Below, one piece after another: positions 54,961-63,816 of a stretch of DNA of 64,000 bases (positions within the stretch are counted from its first letter, which is position 1; each line of letters begins with the position of its first letter). The stretch is from Thraustochytrium aureum (taxonomy: Eukaryota): the NCBI GenBank assembly GCA_012862495.1, contig BLSG01000391.1, forward strand, positions 355,760 through 419,759, read 5' to 3'. The notes under the pieces were generated by a model. That model had not been told where the DNA came from. It worked only from the letters and a program-made list of their open reading frames with translations, and ran no database searches. The position numbers and the translations under genes were made by a program.

Positions 54961-56175
54961 CCCGTTGCGCGCGTGCGTGCGTGCAAGCGCGCGTGCAAGA
55001 GCGCGGCGGGCGTGGCGGCAGGCGGGTTGGTGTACTGCGCGCGCCTCGTGGTCATTGTTCTTATTTCTGGCGTGCTAATGATGGTGGCATTTGAAGTTGT
55101 GGGGCTGGTGCGAGCTCATGGCTCTGTGCGCGCGCCTGCGGCCGTACGTGCGTGCGTGCGTGCGTGCATATGTGTGCGTGCGGTATACATACGTTGGGCG
55201 AAGTATGGGCGGCGCAATTGATGATGTGACGCCCGTGGTGCAGCATATGGTGAAATGGGCATGTGCCAGAACCCGGGCTCCACGCGAAGCACTGCGATCT
55301 TGTGCGGTCCTGAACCGGGAGCAAGCCGATGGCGGCCAGCGAGCGAGGGATGCAGGCGATCGATCTGTTTGTCTTCCTCGCGCAACCTGGCTGACCAGGC
55401 ACCGCTCAATCAAGACAGGCATCGAGCACCAAGGCCACGAGAATGCAAGCGATCGATCCGCCGCGCAGCTCGGCTCGCCCGAACCTCGTTGTCAGCACTC
55501 TAGCTAGTACCTGTGCGCAACCCGGGCCTGGGAGGCAGTGTCCAGATTCAACCTTGCTGCTGCGCAAGAAAATCAAGCCACAAGTAAGCCAAGGCCAACA
55601 GCCACAAAACATCCCGAAAAGGAGCATCGTTGCGCTCACCTGTTGCCAGCGCTGACCGGCTTGCGCGCAGCCCGTGCTCGGTAAGTAGGTAANNNNNNNN
55701 NNNNNNNNNNNNNNNNNNNNNNNNNNNNNNNNNNNNNNNNNNNNNNNNNNNNNNNNNNNNNNNNNNNNNNNNNNNNNNNNNNNNNNNNNNNNNNNNNNNN
55801 NNNNNNNNNNNNNNNNNNNNNNNNNNNNNNNNNNNNNNNNNNNNNNNNNNNNNNNNNNNNNNNNNNNNNNNNNNNNNNNNNNNNNNNNNNNNNNNNNNNN
55901 NNNNNNNNNNNNNNNNNNNTCGAGGCGAACTACAGAGGATGTACTCGAGTACACTCGGAGGACGTACTCGCTCCACTACACGAACGACTCAATCAACGGA
56001 GCACGCTGCAGACCCCGAACGGACGAACGCGCGTGGACAGGGCGAGCGAGGACAGCGCGCAGGCTGGCTTGCTGACTTGCTCACGGCGCGGCTTCGAGCT
56101 CGCGGGGGCAGTGCTGGCTGGCGAGGAGCGCAGGGATTTTGGTTGCGATTCTGGCTCTCCACGCAGGTCGGCGGA

Positions 56176-59100
56176 ATGGAGGTCGAAGACGAGCTCACGG
56201 TGGACTCGCGGGAAGACGCGTTGGCCGCGCTGGCGCAGGGCGAGAGTCGGTGAGTTGGCGGCGGCTGCTCGGGCGCGGTGATGGCAGGGATGTGCTGTCG
56301 GGCGCGGGCCTCGCGGCTTTGGGGAGGTCGCTGACTGCGGAGCAGGCTGGTGGTGAGGTCGCTGAACAATGAGGCGCTTATCGAGCTGTTCAAGGCGCTC
56401 GAGAGAAACTCGGGGCTGTGCTCGCTCGAGTAAGTCTTGCAGGCCTCGTGGTGCGGTGCAAGTGCGTCTTGAAGAGCCTCGTTCGGTCACTAACAGGGGC
56501 GAACCGCAGGCTCGAAAGTCCCAGGTTTCAAGACGCTGGGGCTGGCGCGCTGGCAAAGGCGCTCGCGAAGAACACGGCGCTGACGCGGCTGCAGTAAGTG
56601 CTTTGGTTCTGCCCACGCGCGCTGCCTGCTGGCGCCCGGCCAACGTGGGCTTGCGATCGGCGGATTTCTGACGTGCGAGATCGCACCAACGCAAAGCATC
56701 GAGCAAGCCAAGATCAGCGAGGCAGGCGCTGCAGCGCTGGCCAAGGGTCTCGCGAAGAACTCGACGCTGAGTACGCTCAAGTAAGTTGCCATGGTGTTGA
56801 ACAGTCCACTCTAGTAGGTTTTCGCGTTGGCAAAGCGCGGGTGAGTGTCTCTGACAGGTGTGGCAACAGCCTTTGGGGGGGCACGATCGGTGACGCAGGC
56901 GGTGTCGCGCTGGCCGAGTCGCTCAAGAGCAACTCGACGCTAATTGCGCTCATGTAAGTTGTTATTGGGGTCGATCGCGCAATCGCGTCGCGCGGTTCCT
57001 CACGTAGAGAGCTAGCTGGTTAACGAGCTGCAAGCGACAACGAAATCAGGTATGGCGGGAGCAAAAAGATCAGCAGCGAGGGAGCCAGGGCACTGGCTAA
57101 GATGCTCGAGACCAACTCGACCCTCGCTTCGGTAAAGTAAGTCGTCGCGGGCTCCAGTGATGCGGCGCCTTGTGAGTTGGCGCCGACAAAACCCCATGCA
57201 GGCGGCTGATAAGATTGCACAATGATCAAGCTTCGAGAACGCCAGTATCGGCAACGATGGGGCCATCGCTTTGGCCAGTGCGCTAAAGTCAAACTCGACG
57301 TTGACATTTCTGAGGTACGTCGCTCAAACCGTTGGAGCAGCACCTGGTGCTGTCGGGCATTTTGGCCGTGCCCGTAGCCACCGTCTAGCTGGCCTGCACA
57401 CTGACGCGGACCTGGCGTGAACAGTCTTGAGCACAACGGAATCGGTGATTCTGGCGCTGGCGCGCTGGCCAATGCTCTTGAGGTGAACTCGGCTCTGGTC
57501 TCGCTAAAGTAAGTCGTTGCAGACNNNNNNNNNNNNNNNNNNNNNNNNNNNNNNNNNNNNNNNNNNNNNNNNNNNNNNNNNNNNNNNNNNNNNNNNNNNN
57601 NNNNNNNNNNNNNNNGCTTGCGATCCGCTCTCTCCAAGCGCTCTACTCTAGCTTGAGCGATCCAGAGAGCTTGAGCGATCCAGAGAGCTTGAGCGATCCA
57701 GAGAGCTTGAGCTCGAGTTGGGCTTGATTCTGAGCGAGGTAGCTGCCAGCCAAGCTCTCCTCACCTCGAATGCTGCTAACAAATGAAACAATCAACCATG
57801 AAACAGCCTGGATAGCAACCGAATCAGCGGAGAGGCCGCCGGTGCACTGGCAAAGGCACTCAGAGCAAACTCGACGCTGACCGCGCTCGAGTAAGTCGTC
57901 CCAGAGCGCCGCATGCGCTGTGGTCTGCGCAGCGCGAGCAAGGCAATCGCATTCGGCAAAAGCAAATGTTCGCTAACCATCAAACGGCGACAGGCTTGGA
58001 TACAACAGCATCAGCGACCTAGGTGCTGTCGAGCTGGCAGCCGCCCTCGAGTCAAACTCGACGCTGACCAGTCTTGGGTACGTCAGCCTTCGCAGCGGGT
58101 CGCTCCAGCCTCTTGCGCTCTTGCTAACAATTCAGCGCGACACAGTCTTAGCAAGAACGGTATCGGCGGTCCTGGTGGAGTCGCGCTGGCAGAGGCTCTC
58201 AAAGCCAACTCGACGCTGACCAATCTGGAGTAAGTCGGCCGATGCGTGGGTCTGGCTGCGGCGGCCAAGTGGTGCGCGCTCGCTGACAGCGCGTTGTACG
58301 TCGTCAACAGTCTTGCGAAGAACACTATCGGAGAGACTGAAGCTAGAGCGCTGGCCAGAGCGCTCGCGGCCAACCCGAGACCGGCTCCGGTCAAGTAAGT
58401 CGTTGCAGCGCTGCATGGGTCGCCCGCGCGTCGCTAACAAGCTCCAGCAACGACAGGGATGCGCCGGAGGTGAGCCGTGGCGCCTCTCCTTCGCCCGAGC
58501 ACGAGCCAATGTCGCCGCCGAGTTCGACGCTCAGTTCGATGTCTTGGGCGCAAGCCCGCCGTGCGACGGACGAAAAGGCAGAGCTGGAGCGGCACTTTCG
58601 CGAGGCGATTCAGGATGGCGACGTGCAAGAGTGGGGCCGCGCCAAGCTGATGGTGGTGGGACAAGGCGCAGCTGGCAAGACGCAGACGGTGCGGTCGCTG
58701 CTGGGGCTGCCGTTCCAGGAGGAGCACAACTCGACCGAGGTGGCGGAGGTGACACAGGCGCAGGCGCGGAACTGGAAGCCGCAAGATGCAGGCACGAGCA
58801 ATTTCGACTTGCTGGCGCAGCGCGCGGCGGCAACTCGCGCGGCCAACAAGGGCAAACCAGCCGAAATTAAGCGGCAGAGCCTTTTTCACTTTTTAAGGCG
58901 CCCCTGGACGTCCGCCAAGGGCGGTCGGAAGAAGAACAAGGGCCAAGAGCAACCGCGGCGCGAGCTGCTCGAGGAGAAGGAGATCTTGCGCCGCTTCGAC
59001 TTTGAAGAGGTCAAACGCTTGGCGACCAAGGCGGGGCAGGGCACAGACGTGAGCTTTACTATTTGGGACTTTGCCGGGCAGGAGGTCTTCTACGCGCTAC

Positions 59101-60950
59101 ATCACATTTTCCTGAGCGAGAACGGGCTCTACATCGTCGTATTTAGCATGTCGGACTTGCTTCACCCTCGAAAGGAAGCGGAGGCCCTGCGGTTCCTGCT
59201 GTTTTGGCTCAACTCCATCGAGCTGCACGCCCCGTCGGCGCCAATCATCCTAGTCGGCACGAGGGCCGACGAAGTGAGGACGCGGGCTCAGCGCGAGCAG
59301 GTAAACGCGTGCCTGCGGGACAATCTGGGGGTCGAAGGTCGGTCCGTGATTCGCAACACCGAAAGCAAATTGTACTTCTTCCCGGTCGACAACACCTCAG
59401 CGTCCGAGGACCGCGCCTCGTCGCTACGCAAGGTCGTGCAAGAGACGGCCGCTGCGCAAGACTACATCCGGCGCGAGGTGCCGCTGGCGTGGCTCAAGGT
59501 GCTCGACGACATGCTGTTGTCCGAGCAGCCCCACTTTGCTTTTGATGCTGTCGCCGAGTTGAGTGCAGAGTACGGCATGTCTCTCGTTGACACTGGAAAG
59601 ATGCTTTGCGACCTGGACGAGCTCGGCGTCGTGGTGTACCAGCGCGCGACGGCCGCGTTGCAAGACATGGTGATTGTCAAGCCGCAGTGGCTGCTCGACA
59701 AGCTCTCCGCGGTGATCGCGGACGAGCTGCACGTCAAAGACTTGTTTTTCGACAACAAATATGCAAGAGTGGACAAGCAGCTGGCCGAGCTGCGGCGCAG
59801 CGGCGTCGCGACGCACGCGCTGCTCGAGTTCCTTTGGGGCAGCGAACAGGTCGACTACCTGATCGACTTTATGAAGGGCGCGTGGCTGCTGAGCACGCTC
59901 GAGCCCGGCAGGTACATGGTAACGAGTGTCGTGACGCAGGGGGGTCGGGACGCGCTCGTAGACATTGCGCACCTCCAAGGCGGCCTGCAGTGCGAGGTAG
60001 AGTTTTCATGGCTTCCGAACGGCGTTTTCCAGCGGCTGGTCGCGCAGTGCACGACACCTGCTCTGAGTGCAAGTGAGGCTGGCAACACGATTTGCAAAGT
60101 TGGCAAGACCAAGGCTATCCTCGCGTTCAGGGACACGACCTTCTCGGTGCAGGAGCGCGGCAACTCGCTTGTCATAAATGTCGACCCAAAGGCGGCTGAC
60201 GGGGCCTTGGTGGTGAAAATGCTGGTCTCGATGATCCGCGAGCAGAATTCCGTGCTTTTCCACAGGTTGGACTTTAAGCTCCTGGCCGTCAACAGAGACG
60301 GGGATGCGGTGGAGTACAGCGAGCTCAAGGCCGCCCATGGGCAACGCATGCCGTATATACTGAACCACCGGAGAGACAGACGCGTCCGTGTCAACACATT
60401 CGCCAAGTTTTTCGACGAGCAGTATGGCAGGATCGACAGCGACGCGGAGGGCGCAGCAGCCAAGATTCAGACCCAGCTGGCGCCGCTCGCGCGTGGCCTC
60501 AAGTACCACGTCTTTCTGAGCCACATCCAGAGCACCGGCGGGGACATCGCCGGGCTCCTCCAGCGCGACCTGACGAATCGCGGACTCAGGGTCTGGTTCG
60601 ACAAGGCTTACGAGGGCGAATTGAACGAGGCTGCCATGCTGGAGGGCGTGCGAAGCAGCAAATGCTTCCTGCTGGTTCTCTCCAAGGGCGTGTTCAGCAG
60701 CACGTTTGTGCTGGCCGAGCTCAACCAGGCTATATCGGCGGGCAAGCGCGTGATCATGGTGCACGAGCCCGAGCAGCACCGCGAGAGCTTCGCCCCGTTC
60801 TCCGACTACATCAACGCGGCCCCGCCGGAGCTCGAGTTGTTCAAGAGGGTTCAGTCGCTGGAGTTTGAGCGGTACGCCTACAAACTCAAGGCGTTCCTCG
60901 AGGTGCTCGTCACGCGCATCAACGCGGAGTGGCCTCCGCGTCCAAGCTAG
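56176..60950 (+). CDS. LRR-ROC-COR-TIR (ROCO family) protein; exons 56176-56249, 56346-56429, 56510-56593, 56697-56780, 56870-56953, 57050-57136, 57231-57314, 57425-57508, [gap], 57807-57890, 57994-58077, 58146-58229, 58311-58394, 58457-60950
   Basis: RI-like LRRs (…GAxALAxALxxNSTLTxL); ROC G1 GQGAAGKT, G3 IWDFAGQ, G4 VGTRAD; COR VPLAWL…LGVVVY…VKPQWL, LPNGVFQRL; TIR KYHVFLSH…VWFD…RSSKCFLLVLSKG…VLAEL; all introns GT-AG and phase 2. Confidence 0.92.
57651..57712. repeat. 18-bp tandem repeat (about 3.4 copies) inside a ROCO LRR intron
   Basis: gcttgagcgatccagaga x3 plus gcttgagc. Confidence 0.9.
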
Positions 60951-61332
60951 CTAGCTAGCAAACCAACACAAACCCAATCCACCGAGCCAGCACATCGCCT
61001 CGCGCGGCGCTCGCGCCGGCGCCGGGCTCCAGCCCGAGGCGAGCAGGGCTCCAAGCGCCAAGACTCCAACTCGGCCGCGAAGCAACCAGAGTCGAAACGC
61101 AGAGTGTCGGGGCCTGCCGCGACGAAACCTACGCACGCACGCGCTCCCCTCGTGCGAGCGCGCTCGCTGGCGTCCCTGGCGGACACGTCCTCGGGCAGAG
61201 CACTTGCGCCTCTGCGAGTCGAGAGCACGAGTTGGCCGGCTGGCGCGTCGAGGAGGCGCGGCATTGTGGCGGCGTGACGTGGCGCTCGGCTGGACGCCAG
61301 AGCAGCAAGCGAGGGGCGCCGCGGGCGGCAGC

Positions 61333-63343
61333 ATGGCGGCCAGGGTGCGCAAAGGCGAGCGGCAGGGGGTGACGGCCGGCCAGCTCCTGGTGTTCATCAT
61401 CGGGTGGGTTGGGCTGATCTTTGCGGTGAACGCGTACCGGCGGGCCGCGGGACTGATTCCTCACAGCGAGGAGCCGACGCTGGCGCCGAGCGCGGGGGCT
61501 GACGCGGCAAGGCAAGCTGCGATCGCTGGCGCGCCCGGCAGCGGGGGGCTTGGCGGGCAGGGCGCTGCCGAGTCGCCGTTGGAAAACTGGAACAAGCTGT
61601 CCTTGACCGAACTGCAGACAAGGATGCAGTACTGGCACGGCGAGGCGCTCTCCAACACCGGGCTCAGCCGCCTGCCGAGCCTCGCTGGGGACCGGTATGT
61701 GATCTTCGAAACAGACTGCGGCGGCTGGAACAACATCCGGATGACGTTTGAGATCGTCGTCATCTACGCTTGGCTCACGCGGCGCGTCCTCGTGCTGCCC
61801 CCGCCCGGAGGCATGTACCTTTTGGACTTTGGGCCCATCGTGCGTGGGAAGAGCAGCGACCGCGGCGCAACGCGCTACAGCGATTTTTTTGACATCGAAG
61901 ACCTCCGCGCCTCCATGCCGGTGATTTCAACCACCGAGTTCGTGCGCCGCGAAGCTGAGCGCCTCAACCTCCCGGAGGGTTTGCGTACAGCCAAGCTCGA
62001 GTCGGACACGGGCCGCAGGGAGTGGAAGAAGTGGATCAACTCTGATCCTGGGCAGAATGATCCCCGTGTAAACCTGCCCTGGTCACCGCTCAGCAAGGTT
62101 CTCTTCTTCCCCAGCATTGCAGCTGTGGAGGCGGCGTTCCCCGAGGGCGTCCCGCGCGACTTTGTGCACCACCGCGAGCGCGTCGAGCTGACGCCGCAAG
62201 TTGTGTCAGCCCCAGTGCTCAGCTTTCCAAGCTGCAAGGACAATGAAAACTACCGGGTAAGTTCTTTCGCCGGTGATGGCAGTGCAGGGTGCCCGCTCGT
62301 GAGGGGCGGACGCGCGATGTGGCGGGCTGCGCTCGGCTGAGCGGGGACCGCCCCTGGCCGTCTGCTGCCCACCATTTCTCGCAGACCCTTTTCGACAGCA
62401 GGCTGACACAAAGGTATTCNNNNNNNNNNNNNNNNNNNNNNNNNNNNNNNNNNNNNNNNNNNNNNNNNNNNNNNNNNNNNNNNNNNNNNNNNNNNNNNNN
62501 NNNNNNNNNNNNNNNNNNNNNNNNNNNNNNNNNNNNNNNNNNNNNNNNNNNNNNNNNNNNNNNNNNNNNNNNNNNNNNNNNNNNNNNNNNNNNNNNNNNN
62601 NNNNNNNNNNNNNNNNNNNNNNNNNNNNNNNNNNNNNNNNNNNNNNNNNNNNNNNNNNNNNNNNNNNNNNNNNNNNNNNCGCGCCGCCTGACGCGACTTT
62701 TGCGTCCGCCGCGCAGCTCGGGCCGTTCAAGTATGTCTCGCTTCACGTGCGGCGCAACGACCTGCAGTACAAGGAGGTTTTCATTCCCGCCGAAAAGTCC
62801 CTCGAAAATGTCAGGGCGCTGCTGCGGCCGGGCGAGACGATCTACATTGCCACAGACGAATCCGATCCGCACACGTTCTTCCGCGCGTTCAAGGACGCCG
62901 GTTATCGTGTAGTGTTTTGGCAGGACATCCTTGACGCGGGCGTCTTTGACGGCGTTACGTTGAACAAGAAGCACGAGGGCGTCATCGAGCAGGTAAGTGA
63001 GCGAGCGGAGGACCGAGCGCGCCACAGCATGCGGCTTGCTGACTAGCCAGCGAGCGGCGCGCAGATCGTCTGCGCCTTCGGCCGCTTCTTCGCCGGCACC
63101 GTCGAGTCGACCTTTTCTTCCTACATCTTCCGGTTGCGTGGCTACTACGGCACGCAGGAGGGGGACCGCCGCACCCCAGAGGACTTTGACACGATGGTGC
63201 GGTTTCACAACGTCCTTTACAAGGGCAAGCGGCGCTCGGACCTGGCTGCCACGCTGCGCCTCAAGCCAAACAAAGGCACGATCTACAAGTCGGAAAACCC
63301 CGCCATCTGGACTGACGCGGTCGCCCCGCACACCACGTGGTGA
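61333..63343 (+). CDS. GDP-fucose protein O-fucosyltransferase-like (POFUT2/O-FucT) type II membrane protein; exons 61333-62256, [gap], 62717-62992, 63065-63343
   Basis: TM; YVIFETDCGGWNNIRM…RRVLVLPP; SLHVRRNDLQY; IYIATDE; IEQ|IVCAFGRFFAGTVESTFSSYIFRLRGY. Confidence 0.9.
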
Positions 63344-63816
63344 ATGCCAGCGCGACCTCGCACCTATGGGCACCGAGCACCTACATACTTACCCAACAGG
63401 CAAGCGCACAATTTTCTTCCCACAAGAGCAAAGCACGCCGCGGGTGGCCGCGGTTCGACGCGCGCCAGATCGTGGCCGCCGTGCTGCCGCAACACGAGCC
63501 CCTCTTGGATCAGCACGAGCGCCTCCGGCACACGCGCTGTCGACCGCGCTCTGGCAGTGGCGACCAGCCAGCAGCGCGGCGATCTTGCTTTTGAGGCCGT
63601 GAAACCCGACCGACTTGTCCATGGAGTTGTGGATCACCTCCAGGTCTTTGTTGCTGTGGCGCTCGGCCTTGCGCAAGTCCACGTCCACGAGGCTTTGCAC
63701 GATCGATCCTTCACTTGAACGAACGCGAGACGGTGCCGGGAGTTCAGCTTGGCCGCGCCGTAGATCTGCCGCTCATCTGATGATGAAGATGATCGATCGG
63801 GTCACGACTCGCGGAT

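Follow-up and report, generated by a model that had tools for sequence, protein, structure and literature searches.

Proteins that combine leucine-rich repeats (LRRs), a ROC GTPase, a COR domain, and a TIR domain are known from bacteria, sea anemones, and Aplysia. Bacterial LRR-AP-GTPase-COR-effector proteins, TIR effectors included, have been predicted to be counter-invader systems (Kaur et al. 2021, PMC8195603), and the anemone protein NG1 has the order LRR-Roc-COR-TIR, with bacteria, oyster, and Trichoplax mentioned alongside it (PMC5094078). A TPR-ROCO-TIR protein occurs in Chondrus (PMC11378527). In this work, we analyzed an LRR-ROC-COR-TIR gene of Thraustochytrium aureum, which is located in a 64,000-nucleotide stretch of DNA (contig BLSG01000391.1 of assembly GCA_012862495.1, positions 355,760 to 419,759; hereafter the window). 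The gene is an ordinary further example of this architecture. We found that it is real, intact, spliced, and transcribed, and its product may be a cytosolic immune receptor in which an LRR sensor would act through a ROC-COR switch on an NAD+-cleaving TIR (probability of roughly 0.55).

The locus shares several properties with the described systems. Like the bacterial AP-GTPase systems (PMC8195603), it has N-terminal LRRs, Roc-COR, a C-terminal effector of a variable kind that includes TIR, many paralogues per genome, and a predicted immune role, but it is eukaryotic and intron-rich, with a ROC insertion of approximately 90 aa and repeats of the ribonuclease inhibitor (RI) type. Actiniarian NG1 (PMC5094078) and the ROCO "TLRs" of Aplysia (PMC9334734) have the same domain order and a TIR_2 domain and are catalogued immune candidates. 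The named animal matches of our protein are MFHAS1-like (E = 1e-7 to 1e-9), and no TIR-bearing animal ROCO was named among the matches that were looked up. The brown-algal LRR-ROCO proteins (PMC11378527) are likewise part of a stramenopile ROCO expansion, have one LRR per phase-2 exon, and are proposed immune receptors. However, their exons are 72 bp long with a 24-aa period and their main groups are described as lacking a C-terminal effector, whereas the T. aureum gene has 84-bp exons (28 aa, RI type) and a TIR after COR, and neither shuffling nor alternative splicing was seen in its shallow contigs.

The individual parts can be compared in the same way. SARM1 and TIR-1 have the closest solved TIRs by sequence, and our TIR has the equivalent of SARM1 E642 and counterparts of the BB-loop Asp and Gly; unlike SARM1, the protein is without ARM or SAM domains, has His for Y568 and Phe for W638, and lacks the SARM1-specific loop before helix C (an 8-residue alignment gap). 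The ROC-COR fold is that of LRRK2 and C. tepidum Roco (CtRoco), but there is no kinase or WD40 tail, the output domain is a TIR, and the switch region has a large insertion. The logic of sensor repeat, nucleotide switch, and TIR enzyme is that of plant TIR-NLRs (TNL) and STAND receptors, although a Ras-like GTPase takes the place of the STAND ATPase as the switch, and the TIR is at the C-terminus, which reverses the order. Haptophyte TIR genes have been linked by expression to virus resistance, with no Roc mentioned in the accessible text (PMC12489294).

Gene structure and transcription

A preliminary description of this locus placed a ROC-COR-TIR protein at 58636..60950 and proposed a layout of LRR sensor, ROC-COR switch, and TIR effector. 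The domains are present, but that stretch covers only the last exon of a larger 13-exon gene, in which the LRRs are encoded by 11 upstream exons (Table 1). The open frame 58347-60950 (+) holds all ROC, COR, and TIR motifs and ends seven codons past the TIR. The proposed layout was found in one transcript. In a 526-base contig of run X1, exon 11 occupies bases 111-195 and positions 58457-58703 (247 bases) occupy bases 280-526; this leaves exactly 84 bases, which is the length of exon 12, and therefore LRR and ROC belong to the same transcript. Runs X1, X3, and X4, which come from one study, were taken as RNA on the basis that their contigs skip GT..AG introns, none of them being recorded as RNA, and X2 is a DNA run. 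The contigs are shallow (depth 2.6-4.5), with rare forms dropped.

Nine of the 12 GT..AG introns are listed as joints in RNA contigs (all nine in X1, four in X4, and two in X3), and a tenth is implied by the one bridging contig. The joints form a chain from exon 3 to exon 12; no single contig spans the whole gene. Introns 1 and 2 and the start codon were placed from sequence alone, the contigs having no joined read-through of either intron, and this lack of contig cover was not counted as evidence against them. Unspliced RNA-contig cover was found at 56040-56210. An in-frame ATG upstream at 55939 could add 79 residues, and the RNA contigs, which begin at 56040-56053, cannot fix the start. No exon skipping was seen in the RNA contigs at this depth, every exon-boundary joint linking adjacent exons. 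Joints off the exon boundaries, with 80-90% likeness, were considered as alternative splicing and read as paralogues instead. We considered a hidden exon in the N gap at 57526-57615 and rejected it for the transcript seen here, in which 57508 is spliced directly to 57807 (with 26 and 19 letters on the two sides); a DNA contig also crosses the gap. Beside this gap, intron 8 has a tandem repeat (57651-57715, approximately 3.5 copies of 18 bases), and an X2 contig skips 35 bases of this repeat.

Each of the 11 LRR exons encodes a single repeat, and Pfam LRR_6 gave weak matches to four of them taken singly (E = 0.004-0.2, all below the cut-off) and none to the other seven. Many other LRR transcripts in the RNA runs match the helix-coding half of these exons (56500-58230) and differ in the strand-coding half. 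Several paralogous ROC contigs were also found in the same RNA runs as this gene. The organism likely has a sizeable LRR/ROCO repertoire; within the 64-kb window, tblastn found no second ROC or LRR copy.

Table 1. Features of the LRR-ROC-COR-TIR gene of T. aureum, numbered from the first letter of the window.
Feature	Position	Strand	Basis or detail
Whole gene, LRR-ROC-COR-TIR	56176..60950	+	13 exons, 3495-nt coding sequence, 1164 aa; stop-free exon model; RNA-contig joints
Exon 1, 24-aa N-terminal cap, 74 bp	56176..56249	+	sequence and model; start codon provisional
Eleven LRR exons, one 28-aa RI/NLRC3-type repeat each	56346..58394	+	exon model, all introns phase 2
LRR exons 2-5	56346-56429, 56510-56593, 56697-56780, 56870-56953	+	84 bp each
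LRR exon 6	57050-57136	+	87 bp, the sole non-84-bp LRR exon
LRR exons 7-9	57231-57314, 57425-57508, 57807-57890	+	84 bp each
LRR exons 10-12	57994-58077, 58146-58229, 58311-58394	+	84 bp each
Exon 13, 2494 bp, single exon for ROC-COR-TIR	58457..60950	+	translation; RNA-contig bridge
Ser/Pro-rich linker, start of exon 13	58457..58600	+	translation; X1 contig joins exons 11-12 to 58457
ROC GTPase domain	58636..59460	+	Pfam Roc E=1.6e-20; best PDB sequence matches LRRK2 ROC, E=4e-13
ROC motifs G1 GQGAAGKT, G2 Thr, G3 DFAG	58659, 58734, 59067	+	in-frame translation
ROC motifs G4 TRAD, G5-like VDN	59259, 59385	+	G4 is THLD in LRRK2 at this place
Basic ROC insertion of ~90 aa, switch I to G3	58760..59040	+	family hallmark; partly disordered in model
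COR domain, COR-A and COR-B	59481..60422	+	Pfam and fold match
TIR domain, TIR_2 class, SARM1-like	60504..60929	+	Pfam TIR_2 E=4e-10, 40.7 bits, cut-off 28
Glu1088 (GAG), SARM1 E642 equivalent	60717..60719	+	alignment; conservation

ROC-COR core and TIR domain

The ROC, COR, and TIR_2 domains named in the preliminary description were recovered by profile searches and by structure prediction, with COR-A just below its cut-off (E = 9e-8, 32.5 bits against 35.3) and COR-B at E = 0.17. The G1, G3, and G4 motifs, which had been noted as intact, are in frame and align with LRRK2 and relatives, and G1-G4 are kept across the close relatives. An AlphaFold2 model was built for the last 782 residues (24 sequences; pLDDT 81.7, pTM 0.81), and its top Foldseek matches are all Roco/LRRK proteins, with C. 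tepidum Roco and LRRK1/2 first. The ROC-COR part aligns with LRRK2 at Z 24.3 (root-mean-square deviation, rmsd, 4.2; 476 aligned) and with CtRoco at Z 22.9 (rmsd 3.6; 433 aligned), and model residues 294-607 align with the C. tepidum COR (3dpt_B) at Z 17.7 (rmsd 3.2; 278 aligned). By analogy with the known families, the protein would bind and hydrolyze GTP. No NB-ARC or NACHT ATPase was matched by Pfam at E up to 1 and the fold is that of a Ras-like GTPase; the protein is not an NLR (STAND) receptor. Consistent with the earlier statement that a TIR stands in place of a kinase, Pfam found no kinase domain after COR in exon 13, but this arrangement is not rare, as it was also described from bacteria (PMC8195603), anemones (PMC5094078), Aplysia (PMC9334734), and Chondrus (PMC11378527).

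The insertion lengthens the G1-G3 spacer to 127 aa, within the range of 121-164 aa in the 15 close relatives that have both motifs, compared to 37-42 aa in MFHAS1-like and internalin-named ROCs. Its flanking helices are conserved and its middle is disordered, the insertion being shared throughout the family, and pLDDT falls below 50 at model residues 85-115. It could be a membrane-binding or regulatory arm.

The evidence for the TIR structure consists of the 782-aa model and sequence alignments. With Foldseek, the SARM1 TIR is the best TIR match (E = 2e-5, TM 0.73-0.78 on target), and by sequence the nearest solved TIRs are those of C. elegans TIR-1 and SARM1, at weak E values of about 1e-4 to 1e-6. 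The TIR had been called bacterial-like. Bacterial TIRs indeed score about equal to SARM1 and TIR-1 among solved structures, but among the Atlas clusters that have taxa on record, the nearest are eukaryotic and for the most part haptophyte. PADLOC and NCBIfam gave weak TIR matches alone, far below the cut-off, and a single-sequence TIR search gave two matches among 311 candidates. The GAG codon reported at 60717-60719 is in frame, and its Glu pairs with the Glu of SARM1 WVHKE in the sequence alignment, which is E642 when counted from D563. The suggested WxxxE equivalence thus applies to the Glu but not to the Trp, the residue four before the Glu being Phe. SARM1 D594 and G601 of the BB loop have counterparts in FD..G of this TIR.

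Conservation of the Glu is high. Among 42 TIR stretches from relatives, the column contains Glu in 39, Gln in one, and no cover in two (39 of the 40 covering), and in a wider, partly overlapping set it is Glu in 43 of 52 stretches, the other nine being without cover (43 of 43 covering). TIR identity to the relatives is 30-59%. This Glu and the Ser of VFLS are the most invariant of the scored TIR positions.

Relatives and genomic surroundings

The sequence searches place the gene in a large, labyrinthulomycete-centred ROCO family (Hondaea, Mucochytrium, and Aplanochytrium) with swapped ends and the ROC insertion. A sequence search gave 32 proteins, and the best 23 (E < 1e-101, 32-51% identity) are by name 13 Hondaea fermentalgiana proteins, one from Mucochytrium quahogii, and nine others; a TIR profile search added 12 further Hondaea proteins. 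Of the 25 Hondaea-named proteins with ROC-COR or this TIR, 15 combine ROC with TIR; some records are partial, and a locus may have been counted twice. Twenty Hondaea TIRs are located on short branches, which represents a lineage-specific expansion.

When 1.84 billion representatives were searched with a profile, 1468 matched at E up to 1e-30, and the module counts and the tree were drawn from the best 150 of these. A TIR was found in 48 by hidden Markov model and in two more by Pfam, and the other 100 are without TIR. The family has diverse N-termini (RI-type LRR, WD40, second TIR, kinase, and Ras) and C-termini (TIR, SAM, GST, or a short tail). An amphipathic L-D-x-F-L-x-x-L-like tail was found in 59 of the 100 TIR-less proteins, compared to two of the 48 TIR-bearing ones. 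A midpoint-rooted FastTree phylogeny was computed for 139 ROC-COR cores, with six rows that are distant and, to our knowledge, none that is a TIR-bearing ROCO from bacteria or animals. The window protein falls into a well-supported 20-row clade in which 18 rows have a TIR. Most of the proteins with the tail make up another group, of 76 rows, that is nested among TIR-bearing lineages (support 94). The tail-bearing TIR-less LRR-ROC-COR clade includes P0067, P0068, P0080, P0109, and P0127, with the tail in the effector position. Four of the six TIR-less proteins that were looked up are in clusters named Aplanochytrium; for the 14 TIR-bearing ones, the names are Hondaea (two) and the green alga Cymbomonas (one), and the rest are without organism name.

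TIRs of the same clade also occur without ROC, fused to SAM and to EF-hands. In P0040, P0048, P0049, P0087, P0133, and P0021, the same TIR clade or the ROC-COR core is fused to EF-hands, SAM, kinase, or GST, and Alg14 and exchanger-domain fusions among these six are perhaps gene-model fusions. A metagenomic relative with 54% identity (L002) has an 84-bp LRR exon before ROC. This exon (L002:1-290) lies between two introns that share their first ~45 bases, which suggests a recent exon-plus-intron duplication in that lineage. L002 and a second relative, L003, have introns within ROC-COR, in contrast to the single ROC-COR-TIR exon of the T. aureum gene. Searches with two short patterns gave weak negatives, as none of the 20 pattern matches in viral contigs was confirmed, nor any of the 30 in prokaryote genomes as a close bacterial relative.

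Differences listed between the window and the contigs, some rows of which may come from paralogues, have an uneven distribution along the gene. The 14 in exon 13 comprise 10 silent, three missense, and one stop (silent expected 23.5%, p = 2e-4). In exons 1-12, all four are missense, compared to four of 14 protein-changing in exon 13 (p = 0.02, or 0.04 after three doubtful rows are dropped; the numbers are small), and one of the four is on the concave LRR face. The stop codon, at 58716, was found in one short contig of X2 (90% stringency) and possibly represents a null allele or a paralogue.

For the neighbouring genes (1412-54333 and 60955-63344), a Pfam scan gave matches in 13 of 44 frames, all ordinary eukaryotic genes. 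The domains are kinesin, SAP, RUS1-like, MATH-BTB, AAA ATPase, cyclin, RING, trypsin, CHASE, Cu/Zn SOD, Patched, GOST 7TM, and O-fucosyltransferase.

Proposed function and alternatives

In the immune receptor proposed above, binding of an invader or damage signal would fall to the LRR solenoid. Nucleotide cycling of ROC-COR would let the protein come apart and assemble anew, and the TIRs, once clustered, are predicted to cleave NAD+ through Glu1088. The ligand, the nucleotide "on" state, and the immune role are what we infer from such a scheme; NAD+ cleavage by the TIR is plausible and not established. TIR enzymes act in head-to-tail assemblies, and on this basis a plain two-fold COR dimer is probably insufficient and a requirement for higher-order assembly more likely. 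SARM1 activity is cut by E642A, Y568A, W638A, D594A, and G601P and needs multimers (PMC8266388), from which a similar need may be expected here. The preliminary description treated ROC-COR as a nucleotide-regulated dimerization module. Nucleotide regulation agrees with what is known, but C. tepidum Roco is a dimer with GDP or no nucleotide and a monomer with GTP (PMC5714945), and therefore activation of the TIR by dimerization is not the default reading. The GDP dimer may be a closed state from which GTP frees protomers for higher assembly, or the COR dimer itself may seed TIR multimers. Should the TIR be active, its product would somewhat more probably be a signal of the cyclic ADP-ribose (cADPR) or ADP-ribose type, or moderate NAD+ turnover; wholesale NAD+ depletion has slightly less than even odds.

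Several observations weigh against the immune receptor. One is the GTP-induced monomerization of CtRoco. At the position of SARM1 Y568 there is His (as in 36 of 42 relatives), and at W638 there is Phe (Ala in 28 of 42); the His and Phe changes in this protein appear conservative, and NAD+ cleavage may still be possible. Among Glu-selected TIRs expressed alone in E. coli, 4 of 29 from unicellular eukaryotes and 12 of 61 from animals were active (bioRxiv 10.64898/2026.04.20.719644). The ROC-COR chassis apparently works without a TIR, as approximately 100 of the best 150 proteins are TIR-less. The LRR exons are only 45-70% identical in DNA, too little to point to their recent shuffling here, and variability is only modestly higher at concave-face than at exposed helix positions (2.5 vs 1.9 bits), as any LRR could show. 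The neighbours look like housekeeping genes rather than an immune cluster. In favor of the immune receptor, the module swapping at both termini in the family resembles NLR repertoires.

It is also conceivable, although not probable, that this is an immune or stress receptor whose TIR serves as a scaffold for the recruitment of other TIR proteins, with a Glu that is structural or vestigial. The altered pocket aromatics (His for Y568; Ala or Phe for W638) fit such a role, and so do the possible partners within the family (TIR-only, EF-hand-TIR, and SAM-TIR proteins). Most Glu-bearing protist TIRs in the E. coli screen gave no product, and the Glu is likewise present in TLR2, IL-1R9, and IL-1R10, which are inactive (bioRxiv 10.64898/2026.04.20.719644). 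However, the Glu is among the most invariant TIR positions over many divergent sequences, and Roc with COR is listed among the architectures of active TIRs in that screen (Fig. 3 legend). The active TIRs there mostly made cADPR without NAD+ depletion, and thraustochytrids have members in the Chlamydomonas TIR clade that produces 3'cADPR (bioRxiv 10.64898/2026.04.20.719644); no Chlamydomonas TIR surfaced in the TIR-based sequence searches made for relatives.

With a similarly low probability, the protein may be a non-immune signalling GTPase of the LRRK or Dictyostelium Roco kind, which would convert a trafficking, developmental, or metabolic cue into TIR-made cADPR, for example in calcium signalling of the ectoplasmic net. 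LRRs of the RI type are also present in cytoskeletal proteins and in those resembling RanGAP, relative P0024 was named RanGAP-like by its source, and an EF-hand-TIR relative exists. The gene is transcribed in three runs without recorded challenge (X1, X3, and X4), and its surroundings are housekeeping in character. Against this, the short-branch expansion in Hondaea, the module swaps, and the gain and loss of outputs are typical of conflict genes and not expected of single-copy signalling hubs, and the protein-changing bias of exons 1-12 points the same way, within its small numbers and possible paralogues. A decaying paralogue of a birth-and-death family is very improbable: the X2 stop and a contig depth lower than that of some paralogues would fit decay, but all 1164 codons can be read without interruption, the introns are spliced correctly, and there are more silent differences than expected, whereas the stop is in one short contig that may be another allele or a paralogue, and depth cannot rank genes.

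Our searches found no relevant paper on ROCO proteins in labyrinthulomycetes or on Roco with NADase, most subscription journals being outside coverage, and, as far as searched, no experimental test of a whole LRR-ROC-COR-TIR protein. What deserves further attention is the module-swapping expansion in labyrinthulomycetes, together with the insertion in ROC and the sister clade that lacks a TIR and bears the tail. More speculatively, labyrinthulomycetes may have an immune repertoire of NLR scale on a ROCO GTPase chassis. Sensors of exon-modular 84-bp LRRs or of WD40 would be swapped onto a ROC-COR switch with the ~90-aa insertion, TIR-bearing members would act as executors that make an NAD-derived signal, and the members of the much larger TIR-less clade with the amphipathic tail helix would be paired sensors or membrane-acting executors.

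Thraustochytrids are used in industry to produce lipids and are infected by large DNA viruses, and immunity in heterotrophic marine protists is almost uncharted. How ROC-COR controls its output domain is still debated for LRRK2, and a ROC-COR-TIR fusion offers an output that is easily assayed (NAD+ loss or cADPR). If the NLR-scale repertoire is true, it would give the first GTP-gated TIR enzyme and a direct readout of ROC-COR control over output.

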